Source: Parachlamydiales bacterium
GTDB taxonomy: Bacteria; Chlamydiota; Chlamydiia; Chlamydiales; JAJFMK01
Assembly (NCBI GenBank): GCA_963765145.1
Contig: CAVXVG010000028.1
Coordinates: 70,595-134,594, forward strand
Length of the DNA: 64,000 bases
Reading direction: 5' to 3'
The notes under the pieces were generated by a model. That model had not been told where the DNA came from. It did no database searches and saw only the letters and a program-made list of their open reading frames with translations. Each line of letters begins with the position of its first letter. Positions within the stretch are counted from its first letter, which is position 1. The translations under genes were made by a program, and so were the position numbers. Positions 6,303-62,804 of the stretch are shown here, in pieces.

Positions 6303-7256
6303 ATGACACAAACTCTCTTAATCACGGGCGCCGCGGGCTATATTGGCTCGTTTGTAAATAAATTATTTTTGGAGAACGGATATCAAACCATTATCCTTGA
6401 CGATCTATCTAAAGGGAAGAAAGAATACGTTGTTGGAGGTGAACTCATCGTCGGCAATTTCGGCGACCGACACCTTTTAAAAGAAGTTTTCAAAAGAAAA
6501 ATTGACGGCGTTCTTCACTTTGCTGCCTTCACTAATGTGGGGGAATCGGTCGAAAAACCGTTTAAATATTACGAAAACAACGTGGTTAACACCCTTGTTT
6601 TGCTAGAAGAGATAGAAAAAGCGGGTGTTGAAAGGCTTATTTTCTCCTCATCGGCTGCCGTTTACGGCCATCCAGAAGAAGAGCCCATCACCGAAAAGGC
6701 ACGGCAACAGCCGATCAACCCCTACGGTGAGACAAAACGGGTCGTTGAAGAGATGATCAGATGGTCCAGTTTTGAGGCCATTTCATTGAGATACTTCAAT
6801 GCCGCCGGCGGCGATCCAGAGGGAAAGCTGCTGTATCGCAACCCAAGCCCGACCAATTTGATTCCGATTTTGCTGAACGGGATTGGGGAAAACAGGCCAT
6901 TTACCCTTTTTGGAGAAGACTATCCAACCGAAGATGGAACCTGCATCCGCGACTATATCCATATTTATGACTTGGCCACTGGCCATCTTTTAGCATGGGA
7001 TGCTTTAAAGGATGGAAAAATGGGGGCTTACAACCTAGGAAACGGCAAAGGTTATTCAGTTTTAGAAGTCGTAGCAGCTGTGGAAAAGGTGACAGGAAAG
7101 AAAGTGAACCTCAAAAAAGGTCCAAGACGTGCCGGCGACCCAGCCATCCTCCTTGCAGATGCCACCAAAGCGCGAAAAGAGCTTCATTGGCAACCTAAAT
7201 ATCCGGCGCTTGAGCAGATGGTCCACGACTCCTGGCTAGGTTACCGCACAACCTAG
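6303..7256 (+). CDS. galE: UDP-glucose 4-epimerase
   Basis: MTQTLLITGAAGYIGS Rossmann start and the PYGETK (YxxxK) motif; full-length similarity pattern to GalE. Confidence 0.9.
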   Translation: MTQTLLITGAAGYIGSFVNKLFLENGYQTIILDDLSKGKKEYVVGGELIVGNFGDRHLLKEVFKRKIDGVLHFAAFTNVGESVEKPFKYYENNVVNTLVLLEEIEKAGVERLIFSSSAAVYGHPEEEPITEKARQQPINPYGETKRVVEEMIRWSSFEAISLRYFNAAGGDPEGKLLYRNPSPTNLIPILLNGIGENRPFTLFGEDYPTEDGTCIRDYIHIYDLATGHLLAWDALKDGKMGAYNLGNGKGYSVLEVVAAVEKVTGKKVNLKKGPRRAGDPAILLADATKARKELHWQPKYPALEQMVHDSWLGYRTT

Positions 7257-7353
7257 TTCGCGAAGCGTTTGGAGTGCTAAACTCCTGTTTAGCTTTGACT
7301 TATCAGTGAAAGTGAAAGCTAAACAGGAGTTTAGCACTCCAAACGCGTTGCGA
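7257..7353. repeat. family-A palindromic element (inner-stem variant 1)
   Basis: ttcgcgaagcgtttggagtgc + gctaaactcctgtttagc + loop + exact reverse complement. It starts directly after the galE stop codon. Confidence 0.9.
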
Positions 7354-7443
7354 GGTGAAAAAAAATCATCAAGTGAGCTCTCTATTCGAACCCTCTTTTT
7401 CAACATCCCAAGTTTCTCTCAAGATCTGGAGGCTTCGCGGAAA

Positions 7444-8569
7444 TTAAAAGTAGTAATCGGCGCCGAGGACGAGGCCGTAAAGGCCCATGTCTCCCCTCAA
7501 AGTATGAGAGACCGGCATGGCCGTTGTACCATCTAAAAAGTCTTCAAGGACGAAGCCGCTGGCATCTCTAGCTATGAGCATATTGAGGCCGGAGAGGAAA
7601 ATATATTCCCACCCTGCCTTGACAATGAGAAAACTCTCGTCGCAATTAAAATCTTTGACCCACTGCAAGCCAATAGCAAGGGTTGCCATCTGCTTTAAGC
7701 TTTTTGGGTTACTTTTAAAGGTCAAATCTTGTGTTAGAGGAGACGAAGCAGCAACTGTTTCTGCAAGGAAAAGATCCTGCCGAAGACTTACGCAAGAAAG
7801 AAGCACTGAGTAGTCAAAATTCCCATAAAGAGACAATCCGCAAAAACCGATATCCCATGTGCTATCGAGTCCAAATTTGATTCCAAAAGCGTCTATTTTG
7901 TTTTTATTGTAAGTACCCACTCGGAGGCTGTCCCCTACCCCCGATGAGACAAGAGCAAAAGCAGTATTGAGTTGCTGTTCGCTCCAAACAAATCTAAAGC
8001 CAGCTCTTGGTGTAAGAGTGATCGATCGATTGATCATTGAGATGCGAGAAAAATCGACGTCGAGCTGGTTATATTGCCATTTCCAATGGCCAGTGGTCGA
8101 ATAGTCTCCATTAAAAAACTCTGAAACATTGTTAAATAGAACAGGAACGATTCCGCCGGCCAAAGGCACTGTTTCCCCCGGATTGATAACAGGAAAATTG
8201 TTCGCGAAGGCATCTGAATGAGAGGCCGTTGTCCAAAAATAGAGGTAAGAAACATTCAAAGCCCACTGATCGCAAGGTAAATTGAAGCCCAAGATTCACA
8301 CGAAAGCCGGAATCCCAATTCAGGCTCGGAGCTTGACGGGTGATGCAGCCTGAAGCACCCGGCGTATAAACGGTTTTCTCTGAAAAATAGTTCTCATCGA
8401 CTGCTGGCTTCATGTAGAGCCATTCAGCTCCGACAACCACTGTCCCAAAAGATTCTACATAACTGACCGGTGGCGGGTAGCCATAATCGTAATAGTAAGG
8501 GATTTCAGCAGCTTGTAACGCTATCTGAGGCAAAATTGCGGCAGCTAAAAGGACTTTTGAGAAGTTCAT
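7444..8569 (-). pseudogene. MOMP-like / Legionella-type beta-barrel outer membrane protein, split by a frameshift near 8285
   Basis: N-terminal signal peptide MNFSKVLLAAAILPQIALQA; alternating beta-strand pattern; C-terminal ...GADYYF. Removing one G from GGG restores ...RVNLGFNLPCDQW... Confidence 0.65.
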
Positions 8570-8582
8570 GGGTAGTATCCAT

Positions 8583-9377
8583 TTAAAGTAAAATCTGTTC
8601 GCTTACCTGATCTTGGTAAGCAATGGATACATTTAAACGGATACCCCGATTTTCTAACACCCCATTCACCACCTCCAGCGCCTTTGCCTCAGAATTACAC
8701 TCTTTAGACAAATGGGCTAAATGGACAGCGACAAGGCCCGGATGGGCCACTTCCGATAAAATATCGGCCGAGGCTTTATTGGAAAGGTGACCCAGCTTAC
8801 TTAACACCCGATCTTTGTAAACCCTCGGCCGAGGAGAGGCATGGACAAAACTTTCTTCATGGTTGGCTTCCAAGTAAAGATAATGGCAGTCTTTCAATAC
8901 CCTTTTAACAAGGCTTGTCCCAAAGCCAAGATCTGCAGCTACCCCTATCTTTATGCCTCCGCTCTGAATGGTAAAAGCGACAGGGTCAACCGTATCGTGA
9001 GGAATGGTAAAGGGCAAAATTTCTAAATCGGCAAAAACGAAAGATTCTCCGGTTGTGAAAATTTTGAAGCGAGGTACGACTCCAATAGCAGTCACAATGG
9101 CTTTAGCCGTTTCACCATTTGCAAAGACTGGGATCTGGTAACGGTTCCAAATAGCCCCTAGCCCTGCAATATGATCTGAATGATCATGGGTCACTAAGAT
9201 CGCATCGATCTGATCAAGAGATGACCCGATGGCATTGAGGCGCAATTCCAATTGCTTTGGACTCAAGCCCGCATCGATCAATACTTTGACCTGTTCGGTT
9301 TCTAAATAAAGGGCATTGCCTTTTGAGCCCGAGGCTAAGGGGCAAAACCGTACTTTATTCTTATTCGTCATCGTCAA
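8583..9377 (-). CDS. MBL-fold metallo-hydrolase (YycJ/PhnP-like)
   Basis: VTHDHSDHIAG metal-binding motif. Confidence 0.8.
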   Translation of the reverse strand: MTMTNKNKVRFCPLASGSKGNALYLETEQVKVLIDAGLSPKQLELRLNAIGSSLDQIDAILVTHDHSDHIAGLGAIWNRYQIPVFANGETAKAIVTAIGVVPRFKIFTTGESFVFADLEILPFTIPHDTVDPVAFTIQSGGIKIGVAADLGFGTSLVKRVLKDCHYLYLEANHEESFVHASPRPRVYKDRVLSKLGHLSNKASADILSEVAHPGLVAVHLAHLSKECNSEAKALEVVNGVLENRGIRLNVSIAYQDQVSEQILL

Positions 9378-58397: not shown

Positions 58398-58568
58398 ATG
58401 AACCTACTTTTCACCCTTTGCTTTCTATTGACTGCAGCAACAACAGAGCCGGCAGTTCAAGTTCATCCTGTCAACCCTAAGTGCAACTGCACAGCTGAGT
58501 CTCATTGCGGTTGCGTCGATGGCAAACCATGCCATTGCGGCCAACAAGAGCACCCCGTCTCCACCTAA
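58398..58568 (+). CDS. unannotated 56-aa secreted Cys/His-rich peptide (three CxC pairs)
   Basis: Hand translation: MNLLFTLCFLLTAATTEPAVQVHPVNPKCNCTAESHCGCVDGKPCHCGQQEHPVST*. AAGGAA lies 7 nt upstream, and a family-E hairpin follows immediately. It is below the 60-aa ORF-track cutoff. Confidence 0.5.
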   Translation: MNLLFTLCFLLTAATTEPAVQVHPVNPKCNCTAESHCGCVDGKPCHCGQQEHPVST

Positions 58569-58571
58569 ATT

Positions 58572-58646
58572 ACCCTTGCCCGTGCCCCTGCCCTTGCCCG
58601 AAAAACTCTTTGGCAAAAAATTCGGGCACGGGCACGTGCAGGGGCC
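58572..58646. repeat. family-E hairpin element
   Basis: cccttgcccgtgcccctgcccttgcccgaaaa ... ttcgggcacgggcacgtgcagggg. Confidence 0.85.
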
Positions 58647-58659
58647 CTGTCATTAAGAC

Positions 58660-58734
58660 TCTCTCTCTGTGTTCTCTGTGTTCTCTGTGGTTCTAATCTT
58701 TCAAATAGTATTATAACCACAGAGAGCACAAAGG
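58660..58734. repeat. family-D related short hairpin (ctctgtggtt ... aaccacagag)
   Basis: It shares the ccacagag terminal motif of the D elements and includes the tandem ctctgtgtt repeat. Confidence 0.6.
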
Positions 58735-58917
58735 AAGGGCACTTACTTCTTGATGTGAAAGATTGCAGTTGCTTGGAGACTCCAAACGCTTCGCGTAACT
58801 TAAGAGACCACCTATGACGACCTGGTCCGCCCCGAAAAGATGGTATAATACTCCTCTGAAAAAACGTGTATTTATTGAATAAATACTTTACCATTCCCTC
58901 TCTAAAAGAGAGGATTT

Positions 58918-59968
58918 ATGTCGTTAGTTCCAAATTGTACTTTTTGCCAAAGTTCTTCATCTGAGGTTCAACAGTCCTCTTCTTGTTCACACGATCGAAT
59001 TGACCATTGGCTTGCGACGGCAAAGAGGATGGCTCCTCTGTTTTTCACCTCTTTAGGGACGGGCATAGGCGCAATTATTCTTGGCCGAAGAGTTCATTGG
59101 AGAGGTCATCCATTACGCTTCCTAGCTGCCACCAGTCTTCTTTTCATGCTAGGGCGCGCAAGCTTTGCCTTTGGCAAGGACGTTGTTAGATTAATGGGCT
59201 TAAAGGATGCAGGGGCAGTCCGAGCGATAACAGGAATATTTAACAAAATAAATGGCACAAGCATTGATGCACGTGATGTTCTTTCTCGCCGCGAACAAAG
59301 AAACACTGCTGAAGGGGAGACAATCATCGGCATCTTTATGAAATCATTCAGGGATATGCTTCTAGTTACTCTTTCGAGGCTGCCTTGTGACGAAGCTGAT
59401 AAGGAGCTCATCGCATGGATGCAAGGAAAAATAAAGCTGCTTGATTCGGAAGAGAATTTATCTCACTTTGCTTCATGTTTTTTTAATGCGTTGAAGGAAG
59501 CCGATTCGGATTTATATAGCTTTCTGTCTAAACAAGGGGCTAATTTATTCATGAATCAAGATTTTCGTGAAGCAAAAGGAAAAACTGCTCAATCTAATAA
59601 AACAAGCAGTCACCACTTTCTTAGAAAATGGTGAGACACCTTCTTTTACTTTTGACCAAAAGCTGCGTTTGGCGATGCTATATGTGTTAGAAGACCAAAA
59701 ACATGAAGACAGTGGAAAAGAAGTCATTGCAGCTCTTGCTTCTTTGCAGGATGAATGCAAACAGCCTAACTCCCCACTTTTCCAAGTGGTTAAAGACCAC
59801 TTGGAACAAAATGCAACGACGCGTGAGGATGGAAAAACACTTTCTGATCTCTCGATTTTTAAAATGTTGAGAGATTCACGTTTAGAAGCCGCATTATTTG
59901 CTCTTGTTTGCGAGCACAGAAAAGAACTAGCTATTGCCGCCGGCTTGATGACACCAGCGAATAAATAA
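58918..59968 (+). pseudogene. hypothetical membrane protein with bilobed hydrophobic segment (Inc-like), split at an A5 run (59579-59583)
   Basis: LFFTSLGTGIGAIILG...LRFLAATSLLFMLGRASFAF form paired TM helices. Removing one A joins ...DFREAKGK to LLNLIKQAVTTFLENG... Confidence 0.4.
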
Positions 59969-59993
59969 TAAATTCGATACAGAACTGTTTTAG

Positions 59994-60089
59994 TTCGCAA
60001 AGCGTTTGGAGTGCTAAACTCCTGTTTAGCTTTCACTCTCACGAATAAGTGAAAGCGCAGCAGGAGCTGCGCACTCCAAACGCTTTGCG
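59994..60089. repeat. family-A element, chimeric (left arm variant 1, right arm variant 3)
   Basis: The left inner stem gctaaactcctgtttagc is paired with the right inner stem gcgcagcaggagctgcgc, giving 6 mismatches. An extra half-copy lies at 60139-60163. Confidence 0.85.
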
Positions 60090-60160
60090 GAATAAAAAAA
60101 ACTGTCAACTTCGCTCTTTAGGTTGCCGAAACGCCGCTCGAGCACTCCAAACGCTTCGCG

Positions 60161-62804
60161 TTACTTTTCCGGTAGGTGGTAAAAGACACCATGGTTGGGA
60201 TAGGCAAAGATTTGCAGAGCGGCCTCATGAATGTTGTCTGCAGTGATCAATTTGTCCACACGCCTAGGGTCAAAAAGGGTCGATAAGGGGCCGGCATACA
60301 AGGCGCTCGATACCAATTTGCCTACCCAATAACCATTTTCTTCCTGCCCTTCCCGCTGCTCTTCATGGAAGAATGCTTTTAAATTGGATAGCTCCCTGCT
60401 AGTTATCCCCGCTTCTTTTAGAGCTTTAATCTCTTCAAATACAAGATCGGTCAACAGTTGCCGATCGTGCGGTTGACAGGTAAATTCTACTACGAGATAG
60501 GAAACCTCCAAATAGGGGGCGCATGGAGTATCCAACTTTGTGTATACGCCATAAGTTTTCCCATGGCTCGAGCGCAGCACATTCCACAATCTTTTTTCTA
60601 AAATCTGGCAAACAGCCCTCACAGGAAGAAATGAGTGGTATTGATTGTCAATTTTTTGGAAATCAAAAGGAAATTCTAAATGGCAAGTGGCAAAGGTTTG
60701 TTTTCCCTTCAGATATTCAAACTCCTGGCTTGTTTTGGGGAGGAGAGGAAGGACAGGAACCGTCTCTCCACTTTTTGGTCTCTCTGGCAAAGAACCGATG
60801 TAGCGATTGATCGGATCGACCATCTCCTCCAGATCAAAATCTCCTACTAGAATAAAGGTAAAATCTTGAGGACAGCCGAACAAAGCATTAAAAATCTCTT
60901 TTGCCTTCTCTGGGTCAACCTTTGCTAAGTCTGCTTCTTTAAAGGTGTAATGCCCATCTGTCATCGCATCATTGATCTTTTGCTCAAACTGCTCCTTGGC
61001 AGTTTTCTTTTCTTTCTCTTCCCATTTAGCAAAATAGAGCCACTTTCTTAATGCATCGACTTTGAATTTCGGTTCTTTAAAAAGGGCATGGATTGCATGG
61101 AGGACAGCCGCAACCTCTTTTTTATCCATCGTATACTGGATGGAACGGTAACCTAAGCCCAAGTCGATTTTAGCTCCTGCTTGAGCCCAATGTCTCAACC
61201 CAAAGGCAGCAAAATGGCCACTAGAAATATCAGCGACTGAATATTGGGCAAACCCCCCTTTGGCAACCATGTAAAAAACTACTTTTCCGTCACCAAGTTC
61301 GGTGTTTTTAAGAAGCACTTTGATTCCGTTAGAAAGGGTCCATTCAGACACGCCTGAATGGTCTTCAACATCAATCTCTTCAATATAACCGGCATCATCT
61401 TCTAATTCTTGGATAGAATGCTGATCCAATTTTAGAAAAGGTTTGTCCTTCAATGATTCGTAAATATCAGATTTTGGGGTAAATAAAAAAGCCGTATAGG
61501 ACATGTTAAGAGGCGAAAACTCAAGCCACCTATTCACCTCTTCAAGCGTTAACTCATCTAAAGCAGCTAGAGTTAAGTTGTATTCTTCTTCCTCTGATAA
61601 AAGAGGGTCTTGATGAGTGACAAAGTGGGCAACGAATTGCTCGGCGATATCTTCATGGCCCCTCTTCATTGGTTTCTTCAACAGTTTTTCAAGGCTTTCT
61701 TGTTTTTCCCCAATCCACTCCTCCAATTGGCAAGCAGTAAAGCCTTTTTTATTTAAAGATTTGACGCCTTTTAATAAGGAGTTAATTTCATGCTCAACAT
61801 CCTCTTCGTCAAGAGAAAATCCTGTAACGTATTTATCAACTGAAAGAAGAAGCTCTCGACCGAAACCTTGTAGGCGTGGGCACTTTAAATTTTTCAAATG
61901 CTGGATGAAAAGGGAGGTAGCACATTCTGCAAGTAAGTTGCCTTTGACCCGCTCCTCAGGGCTATCGCAACCAATTGGTTCATAAGGAGCTGAAAACATT
62001 AACCAAAGACCCGAATGATCTAGTTCTGGTTCCACATACAGCACCTCTCGATCAACTTCTGGATACACGACAGCCAAATCAGGTTCTTTGACCTTTTCTT
62101 CGGGGTTACTAAGGGTGCTAAATAGGGTTTTTATTTTCTTTTCTACTTCTCTCACATTCTAGATCTCCCACAATGATGACTGCCATCCGATCGGGCCGAT
62201 ACCATTTTTTATAAAAAGTTCTTAGCGTGTCAGAACTTACTTGCGTGATATTTTCTAGGGTTCCTGAAGGAAAATTGGTCTGCAAAAGAGAACCAGGGAA
62301 TGACTCTTCCATAAATTTCACAGCGACTTGTTCATTTGGAGAGGAAAAGCCACGATGCAGCTCATCTAAAACAACATACCTTTCTTTTTGAATGACTCTA
62401 TCTTCAAGGGTTGCAAAGCCGGCAAAATCCCTTAAAAATAAAAGCGTTTGGTCCAAACTTTCCGGGTGGTTCAAAGGGATGTCTAAATGGTAAACCGTTC
62501 TTTCAAAACCGGTGTAGGCATTTCTCCGCATGCCTCCTAAGGAATCCAAATAACTTTCAAGCACCCCATCTTCAAAATGCTTTGAACCTCGAAAATTCAG
62601 ATGCTCTATAAAATGGGCAATCCCTACTTCATGCGGTTTTTCATAAAGCGACCCGACCTTGACGGCAAGCGTCAATACCGCCCTATCCTTTGGCGTGCTA
62701 TTTTCTTGCACATAGTAAGTAAGCCCATTCTCCAAAGTTCCGTGTCGAACTTCTGTTGCGCAAAGCATTTGTAATGAGATAAATAGGAAGAAAAAGAGCC
62801 GCAT
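60161..62804 (-). pseudogene. secreted M16 family zinc peptidase, paralogue 2, split near 62155
   Basis: Signal peptide and HFIEHLNFRGSKHF. The 228-aa and 664-aa ORFs join if one nt is removed in gaa-t-gtg: ...IIVGDLEVREVEKKIKTLF, compared with VVGDFDGKEVEKKVQNLF in the paralogue. Confidence 0.8.

Follow-up and report, generated by a model that had tools for sequence, protein, structure and literature searches.

A conserved, formerly unannotated gene for a cysteine-rich micro-protein, divergent from a PqqL/FusC-type M16 peptidase operon in environmental chlamydiae

CxC motifs occur in Cu(I)-trafficking proteins, in CopY and in metallothioneins, and exported Cys-based copper proteins are known (Csp1, CopG) (PMC7558416). 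The mycobacterial Cu(I) metallothionein MymT (4.9 kDa), for which a solvent-shielded metal-thiolate core with up to six bound Cu(I) ions has been proposed, provides the precedent of a bacterial copper metallothionein of about 5 kDa encoded by an unannotated open reading frame (ORF) (PMC7558416). Here we analyse a 56-residue micro-protein encoded in a 64,000-nt stretch of DNA from a Parachlamydiales bacterium (contig CAVXVG010000028.1; that whole stretch is called the window), where its gene lies head-to-head with a gene for an M16 zinc peptidase of the PqqL/FusC type, followed by a gene for a TauD-family dioxygenase. The gene is conserved in related chlamydiae, and its product may be exported and may bind metal. 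Other contigs or loci compared with the window are given L-numbers, and their proteins P-numbers.

MymT has three CxC pairs, CGC and CHC among them. The micro-protein resembles it in being the product of a tiny Cys-rich ORF skipped by annotation, in its CxC-type motifs and in having His beside Cys. However, MymT is cytosolic, lacks a hydrophobic N-terminus and is regulated by RicR; it has no detectable sequence homology to the micro-protein, which matches no family model of NCBIfam or Pfam; and it belongs to a copper regulon, whereas the context here is an M16/TauD operon. With SmtA/BmtA (PF02069) and with the six-Cys modules of eukaryotes, such as the Zn2Cys6 gamma domain of wheat Ec-1 and the fungal Cu-metallothioneins, the micro-protein shares low mass, Cys richness, His as an extra ligand, the absence of aromatic residues, and CxC pairs spaced by short Gly/Ser/Lys-rich loops. 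Nevertheless, the chlamydial micro-proteins matched neither a Pfam model (E ≤ 10) nor a PDB entry, and, compared with the characterised bacterial metallothioneins, the micro-protein alone bears an export or anchor segment.

Bufferins are small precursors that contain Cys, bear a Sec-type signal peptide at the N-terminus and act on metal in the periplasm (PMC11626156); the micro-protein likewise is small and contains Cys, has a candidate signal of this type, and is proposed to play a comparable part. Bufferin loci, however, carry an MNIO (DUF692) gene and a DUF2063 partner, neither of which is present in the neighbourhoods examined, and bufferin precursors belong to DUF2282 or BUF_EGKCG, whereas the micro-protein has no match. 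OmcA (PF03503) is likewise a small, cysteine-rich chlamydial protein that is exported, as is predicted here, but the micro-protein has no Pfam match and no workable lipobox, and its Cys pattern and genomic context are different. The PqqL/FusC systems resemble the locus in the neighbouring gene rather than in the micro-protein: both have a single-chain M16B peptidase of about 915 residues with a signal peptide. Those systems serve iron piracy, the protease being paired with a TonB-dependent receptor (PMC12731061). In the locus studied here the conserved partners are the TauD-family dioxygenase and the Cys-rich micro-protein, and the neighbourhoods showed no receptor gene. On these comparisons the micro-protein appears most like a metallothionein or metallochaperone, and by sequence it does not group with SmtA/BmtA, the eukaryotic metallothioneins, OmcA or the bufferin precursors.

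The gene and the parts of its product are as follows.
58398..58568, plus strand: micro-protein gene, 56 codons plus stop, ATG start; product MNLLFTLCFLLTAATTEPAVQVHPVNPKCNCTAESHCGCVDGKPCHCGQQEHPVST.
58387..58392, plus strand: Shine-Dalgarno-like AAGGAA, 5 bases 5' of the ATG.
58398..58445, plus strand: residues 1-16, a hydrophobic N-terminal segment without charge, putatively an export signal or a signal-anchor.
58479..58541, plus strand: core K28-G48, 21 residues, K-C-x-C-[TS]-[AS]-x-S-H-C-G-C-[VIL]-[DN]-G-x-P-C-H-C-G.

A first-pass annotation of the window had proposed this ORF, and its translation proved to be exactly the one given there; the AAGGAA ribosome-binding site, the signal-like N-terminus, the CNC-x5-CGC-x5-CHC pattern and the four His that it listed are all present in the sequence. 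An in-frame TAA at 58395-58397 blocks extension of the ORF in the 5' direction, and AAGGAA has a purine-rich counterpart in the aligned L006 and L008.

Contigs bearing orthologues were reached by way of the neighbouring M16 gene, through its closest relatives. They show the ORF intact in four other lineages. A 56-residue orthologue is carried by L005 and L015, whose neighbouring M16 is about 93% identical to that of the window; L006 and L007 (M16 identity 56%) carry one of 55 residues, and L008, L009 and L011 (49%) one of 62 residues, which in L008/L011 had been predicted by ENA gene calling as P0121 (62 aa). Conservation in relatives sharing the locus, on which the earlier proposal had been staked, holds throughout: the ORF is kept in every one of them. 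Synonymous changes number 20 between the window and L005, against 6 non-synonymous ones, an excess with a binomial p of 9e-9, and the dN/dS ratio that had been suggested as a check is 0.054, that is, strong purifying selection. In the same comparison the Cys-rich core shows nine synonymous changes and no non-synonymous one, and codon position 3 holds 16 of the 19 differences in the first 48 codons. All five substitutions between L005 and L015 are synonymous, the encoded peptides being identical, and against L008 the synonymous sites are saturated with the motif still intact. The same saturation rules out that the related contigs are chimeric copies of one sequence.

We consider the micro-ORF to be coding because its reading frame is conserved and synonymous substitutions are in excess; this is a genuine, formerly unannotated gene for a micro-protein of 55-62 residues under strong purifying selection. 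An ORF arisen by chance in a repeat-rich intergenic spacer would also be short, unannotated in the source record, without a match in curated family libraries and adjacent to dispersed palindromic repeats, all of which hold here. Such an origin is nevertheless extremely improbable and, in our judgement, effectively excluded: the start, frame and stop region are conserved in five independent contigs with M16 identities of 49-93%, the low dN/dS is accompanied by a third-position periodicity of the differences, and antisense and alternative-frame ORFs at the locus showed no conservation.

Relatives beyond these contigs are few. The pattern CxC-x4-8-CxC-x4-8-CxC, searched as a regular expression over the window and 17 loci (about 330 kb, all six frames), matched the micro-ORF, its chlamydial orthologues, a distant relative on L014 and one translated hexamer repeat, and nothing else. 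Profile searches of Pfam, NCBIfam and PDB at E ≤ 10 gave no family for the chlamydial micro-proteins. In a word-index search for homologues, the single peptide had no match and a four-sequence profile retrieved only P0121, already known; exact-sequence look-ups of the window peptide, of a 238-residue neighbour and of P0129 returned no record. Scanning 1.84 billion representative proteins with HMMER yielded three matches, P0121, P0122 (E = 2.9e-5) and P0123, the last of which, a repeat protein, was judged spurious because it lacks the CxC motif. A metagenome scan with the profile recovered only the Ga0153954 contig, already known, two viral-contig scans were empty, and a genome-contig scan with the M16 protein gave distant relatives only (24-30% identity; Acidobacteriota, Spirochaetaceae, Rikenellaceae), none with the peptide.

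The distant homologue P0122 (153-172 aa; L014 659-1177, on a 1.3-kb high-GC contig) contains 15 Cys. Its N-terminus is strongly positive and is followed by a transmembrane helix of 23 residues, and the protein carries a CxC-...-CGCxDGKPCxC module twice. By the positive-inside rule these modules would be extracytoplasmic, which supports an extracytoplasmic role of the module in general. P0122 also reached a sub-threshold match to Pfam Metallothio_Euk (E = 0.009, 16.3 bits against a cut-off of 22 bits). Its gene has as neighbours two tiny ORFs and the 3' end of a gene of glycosyltransferase type. To judge from the public data searched, the micro-protein belongs to a new small family that is narrowly distributed, being confined to one clade of amoeba-associated, environmental (Protochlamydia-like) chlamydiae.

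The micro-protein contains seven Cys, namely C8 in the hydrophobic N-terminus and the three CxC pairs, and four His. Its N-terminal segment has a mean Kyte-Doolittle value of 2.5 over residues 3-13, against -0.6 for the remainder of the protein, and M1, L3, T6, L7, C8, L10, L11 and A13 are invariant in the alignment of orthologues. Export may be inferred because this N-terminus is hydrophobic and uncharged, like the signal peptide of the neighbouring M16 peptidase: the hydrophobic h-region comprises about 13 residues, and a positive n-region is absent from both. Candidate signal-peptidase sites follow A13, A14 and T16 and are poorly conserved, as read from the alignment. A variable Pro/Ala/Thr-rich linker joins the segment to the core, and the C-terminal tail also varies among orthologues.

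The degree of conservation of this segment is higher than one would expect. Between the window and L006, 12 of the first 13 residues are identical (counted by eye from the alignment), and codons 1-13 differ by seven synonymous changes and one non-synonymous change (manual count in the codon alignment), whereas in the same species pair the signal peptide of the adjacent M16 peptidase retains merely 8 of 22 residues (also a manual count). By this comparison the segment is conserved far beyond the needs of a signal peptide. One might therefore think of a small integral membrane protein that retains its N-terminal helix and acts as a regulator or in the manner of a type I toxin, the Cys-rich tail being secondary. 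The exceptional conservation of the segment including Cys8, the lack of a conserved signal-peptidase site and the membrane anchor of P0122 agree with this, but we find it unlikely: with 13-16 residues the hydrophobic stretch falls short of a standard transmembrane helix, conservation is strictest in the Cys/His core and not in the helix, and neither antisense RNA nor toxin-antitoxin features were seen at the locus. A type I toxin proper was rejected on the same grounds of a too short hydrophobic stretch and conservation centred on the Cys/His core. A lipoprotein was also rejected, since the sole N-terminal Cys is residue 8, too near the N-terminus and with Leu at -1.

In the core, the six Cys, two His, K, S, two G and P are invariant among the orthologues. 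Cys makes up about 29% of it (6 of 21 residues), there are no aromatic residues, and four of the five orthologues have none beyond residue 16. Metal binding may be inferred from this combination of six Cys and two invariant His in 21 residues without aromatics. In composition the sequence agrees with the operational definition of metallothioneins (small, Cys-rich with CxC/CxxC, few or no aromatic residues), the other element of which is the binding of several metal ions in metal-thiolate clusters. The likeness to metallothioneins or metal chaperones suggested by the first-pass annotation thus holds for composition and fails at the level of family matches. Six Cys would also suffice to supply the ligands of a Zn2Cys6 or a Cu4S6 cluster.

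From these features a hypothesis may be put forward, the one we favour, though tentatively and short of calling it probable: the gene would encode an exported or membrane-tethered Cys6His2 metal-binding micro-protein. The uncharged hydrophobic N-terminus would carry the C-terminal part across the inner membrane, either being cleaved off as a Sec signal or, as its unusual conservation might suggest, staying in the membrane as a signal-anchor. The 21-residue core would then fold around metal, with six Cys (three CxC) and two His forming a compact metal-thiolate site, for which binuclear Zn2Cys6(His) and Cu(I)4S6-type arrangements are candidates. Such a periplasmic module, similar to a metallothionein or metallochaperone, might buffer metal or pass it on in the compartment that it would share with the co-regulated zinc peptidase.

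An exported protein with these cysteines could instead be stapled by disulfides and bind no metal. DsbA-type oxidation would produce three disulfides and a small beta-hairpin or knot, and the product could inhibit or regulate the adjacent M16 'cryptase' or be its substrate, or it could be a small cysteine-rich envelope protein analogous to OmcA. Six Cys, an even number, are predicted to lie in the exported part; the turn residues DG and KP/AP, located between the CxC pairs, fit beta-turns, in line with low-confidence strands at residues 36-38 and 46-48 in an AlphaFold2 model; disulfide-cross-linked proteins rich in cysteine are a known trait of chlamydial envelopes; and P0122 keeps the Cys and not the His. 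In addition, the chambers of M16 enzymes accept peptides of up to about 65-70 residues, and one such enzyme, HrrP, degrades cysteine-rich peptides (PMC12731061). We regard the disulfide-stapled form as a serious possibility, but on the unlikely side, as the two invariant His adjoin Cys, the Lys/Ser/Gly-rich composition devoid of aromatics is likelier in metal-thiolate proteins than in knotted mini-proteins, and three CxC pairs offer no obvious strain-free ladder of three disulfides. A match to OmcA (PF03503) or to any inhibitor family was not found at E ≤ 10, nor does the protein have a canonical lipobox.

Several observations weigh against the metal-binding hypothesis itself. No metallothionein family was matched in Pfam, NCBIfam or PDB at E ≤ 10; to our knowledge, the known bacterial metallothioneins (SmtA/BmtA, MymT) are cytosolic; and the periplasm is oxidising, which could turn six exported Cys into three disulfides. 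P0122 retains the Cys, Gly, Asp-Gly and Pro of the module but has lost the two His. As to export, the hydrophobic segment is short (13-16 residues) with neither a positive n-region nor a well-conserved AxA site, and its strong conservation, Cys8 included, is, to judge from the alignment, not accounted for by a plain signal peptide. The AlphaFold2 model, built from a two-sequence alignment, is unreliable (pLDDT 56) and gives no dependable structural support. Family searches of the neighbours revealed no metal transporter or metal-sensing regulator in the surveyed neighbourhoods, and no conserved metal-regulator operator is evident in the aligned spacers. Finally, the gene may stay linked to M16 simply because a break within an 85-bp bidirectional promoter would be costly.

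That linkage involves the following genes, all identified by Pfam matches.
55560..58312, minus strand: M16 zinc peptidase of the PqqL/FusC type, a single chain bearing a signal peptide; active site HFLEH.
54354..55358, minus strand: TauD/TfdA-family Fe(II)/2-oxoglutarate (2OG) dioxygenase, without a signal peptide.
60161..62804, minus strand: second M16 paralogue, HFIEH, split into 228 + 664 aa.

The micro-protein gene indeed lies between two M16 genes of the minus strand (55560-58312 and 60161-62804), as had been noted, and the association turned out to be stronger than claimed. In all lineages the gene is head-to-head with one particular paralogue, the first, which is its constant divergent partner at an ATG-to-ATG distance of 83-93 bp. 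The second paralogue, of which L016 has an intact orthologue (P0009), is not next to the micro-protein gene in other lineages. The linkage is conserved across four lineages, all of them within one clade. The partner is a single-chain M16B protein of about 915 residues with an HxxEH site; its intact orthologue in L005, P0001, has 914 residues and is 93% identical to the M16 of the window. We assign it to the periplasmic PqqL/FusC type and not to the PqqF type because its closest solved structures are 9LDY, PqqL (6OFS, E = 2.5e-64) and FusC (6B05). A 2OG dioxygenase had been noted as a separate feature 3 kb upstream. The dioxygenase is present, but as the second gene of the M16 operon: the TauD gene comes after the M16 gene in every lineage. 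It has merely weak NCBIfam matches, and amino-acid hydroxylase models score far below their cut-offs.

The first-pass annotation had also suggested a precursor of a ribosomally synthesised and post-translationally modified peptide (RiPP), by analogy with leader processing of the PqqF type. In a version adapted to the genes present, cytoplasmic TauD would hydroxylate a residue of the core (e.g. Asp/Asn41, His or Pro), and after export one or more periplasmic M16 peptidases would trim the product to a mature Cys-rich, possibly metal-chelating peptide, following a bufferin-like logic. The clustering of the micro-protein, M16 and TauD genes in four of four lineages is consistent with this, as is an N-terminal segment far better conserved than the M16 signal peptide, which is expected of a recognised leader. 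Precedents also exist: bufferins are RiPPs with Sec signal peptides that chelate periplasmic copper (PMC11626156), and M16 enzymes mature the precursors of PQQ and subtilosin (PMC12731061). However, M16 enzymes of the PqqL/FusC type are known as periplasmic degradative or import proteases (PMC12731061), and no recognised maturase or recognition element (MNIO/DUF692, radical SAM, YcaO, LanM, RRE) is encoded in the neighbourhoods of the window, L006, L008 and L011. TauD matches the amino-acid hydroxylase models weakly, the micro-protein gene is transcribed divergently and lies outside the enzyme operon, and clustering limited to one narrow clade could be explained by shared ancestry. A RiPP-type precursor is, in our view, improbable, and the route through PqqF-type processing is weak.

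A broader idea is that the micro-protein, the PqqL/FusC-type M16 peptidase and TauD form a single functional module, new to description, which we think unlikely in either of its two forms. The module could comprise a periplasmic metallothionein or metallochaperone serving protease-linked import or processing in obligate intracellular bacteria. Alternatively, it could represent a new class of RiPPs: TauD would hydroxylate a Sec-exported Cys6His2 peptide, and M16 would trim it into a secreted metal chelator.

The spacer between the divergent genes and the region past the micro-ORF contain the following elements.
58364..58369, plus strand: TAGAAT, candidate -10 element for the micro-protein gene, about 28 nt 5' of its ATG.
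58341-58346, plus strand: TTCTGA, possible -35 element of the micro-protein gene, 17 nt 5' of TAGAAT.
58331..58336, minus strand: TATAAT, proposed -10 element of the M16-TauD operon; the ATTATA block is invariant in 4/4 lineages.
58573..58645, plus strand: imperfect hairpin with 25-nt arms (arms 58578-58645), about 5-10 nt past the stop.

According to the spacer alignment, TAGAAT is shared by the window/L005 and L006 and reads TAGAGT in L008. We infer from sequence that TAGAAT and TATAAT may be back-to-back -10 elements; a consensus promoter scan called no sigma-70 site in the spacer. With its -10-like hexamer, Shine-Dalgarno sequence and a hairpin past the stop, the micro-protein gene appears to have its own transcription unit. 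The spacer of the window also contains an imperfect palindrome of 21 bp, GAAGTACTATTATATCACTTC, whose arms are not conserved in L006 and L008; it was therefore rejected as an operator of a metal regulator, and the block containing it is read as the -10 region of the M16 gene. Over the 120 bp at 58273-58392, comprising the complete spacer together with the 5' end of the M16 gene, the window and L005 are 100% identical, with the flanking coding DNA about 8-12% diverged. This identity would be suggestive of dense regulatory constraint on a bidirectional promoter, and only suggestive, since other perfect 60-nt blocks exist in the alignment.

The hairpin reported directly past the stop codon was confirmed (dG -44 kcal/mol, z = -6), and no T-run follows it on the plus strand. 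It belongs to a dispersed family of (GCCCNT)n palindromic repeats with copies near 23.3, 28.0 and 52.5 kb, and L005 and L015 have an unrelated hairpin at the same place past the micro-ORF stop. Short intergenic palindromic repeats were noted at 58573-58645, 58665-58733, 23257-23361, 27963-28146 and 52540-52555, and at 1690-1760 of L015; the families include (GCCCNT)n hairpins and hairpins of the (CTCTGTG)n type, and near-identical strains differ in them. A hexamer repeat at 27963-28056 has about 16 units, and in L005 a 99-bp hairpin is inserted between M16 and TauD, relative to window position 55534. In this the palindromic repeats behave like mobile elements of the miniature inverted-repeat (MITE) or repetitive extragenic palindromic (REP) type. 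An Rfam search found nothing near the locus.

On the far side of the micro-protein gene the neighbour differs by lineage: a 238-residue ORF in the window and L005, an LptE-like lipoprotein in L015, an IS66 element in L006 and a DarT toxin gene in L008 and L011. An attenuation leader peptide was rejected because the downstream gene is not conserved. In the window, the ORFs at 58918-59634 (plus strand, 238 aa) and 59567-59968 (plus strand, 133 aa), between the micro-protein gene and the second M16, have no Pfam or NCBIfam match; the first is conserved in L005 (about 85% DNA identity) and missing at the same position in L015, L006 and L008. The DarT (PF14487) ADP-ribosyltransferase toxin gene (L011 10166-11233, minus strand; L008 7234-8301) is convergent with the micro-protein gene and overlaps its 3' end by 24 bp in the L008/L011 lineage. 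The IS66-family element of L006 (TnpB_IS66 and a DDE transposase, 7145-9302) lies immediately past the micro-protein gene, between the second and third M16 paralogues; this 2.6-Mb relative has three tandem paralogues instead of two. Among all neighbours in the window, L006, L008 and L011, the Pfam domains are limited to M16, TauD, Pom, HD, IS66, DarT and similar ones; the presence of Pom (PF17251, 'Protochlamydia outer membrane protein') and the gene content at large assign the bacterium to the environmental chlamydiae.

At least four genes within 52561-62804 of the window are split relative to intact orthologues elsewhere. A 1-nt gap near 56447 splits the first M16 gene (M16_B, 55560..58312) into 626 + 297 aa, as against 914 aa in L005, and the second (M16_A, 60161..62804) is read as 228 + 664 aa, compared with 882 aa in L016, with a frameshift region at 62118-62155. 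Pom is read as 165 + 136 aa (298 aa in L006) and the HD_4 hydrolase as 136 aa (254 aa), and further split ORFs are found at 53459-53869/53857-54354 and 52561-52971. The same split products occur in the public record (P0129, P0133), and the micro-ORF is intact. The splitting points either to indel errors of long-read assembly or to gene decay.

We consider the locus to be of moderate interest: the gene is solidly real and its pairing with a PqqL/FusC-type peptidase intriguing, with a putative function read from sequence and a family that is rare. Annotation misses small proteins systematically; this micro-protein is absent from Pfam and NCBIfam, and just one orthologue had ever been called as a gene. 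If it proved to be merely a disulfide-rich envelope peptide, it would be a modest addition to the cysteine-rich envelope proteins of chlamydiae. Periplasmic M16 enzymes of the PqqL/FusC type are widespread and functionally obscure, and the fixed pairing with a protease-TauD operon offers a testable handle on roles of these enzymes beyond iron piracy. If the micro-protein does bind metal, it would be an exported, periplasmic counterpart to the bacterial metallothioneins, so far known solely as cytosolic proteins, and it would occur in chlamydiae, in which the handling of metals inside host vacuoles is poorly understood.

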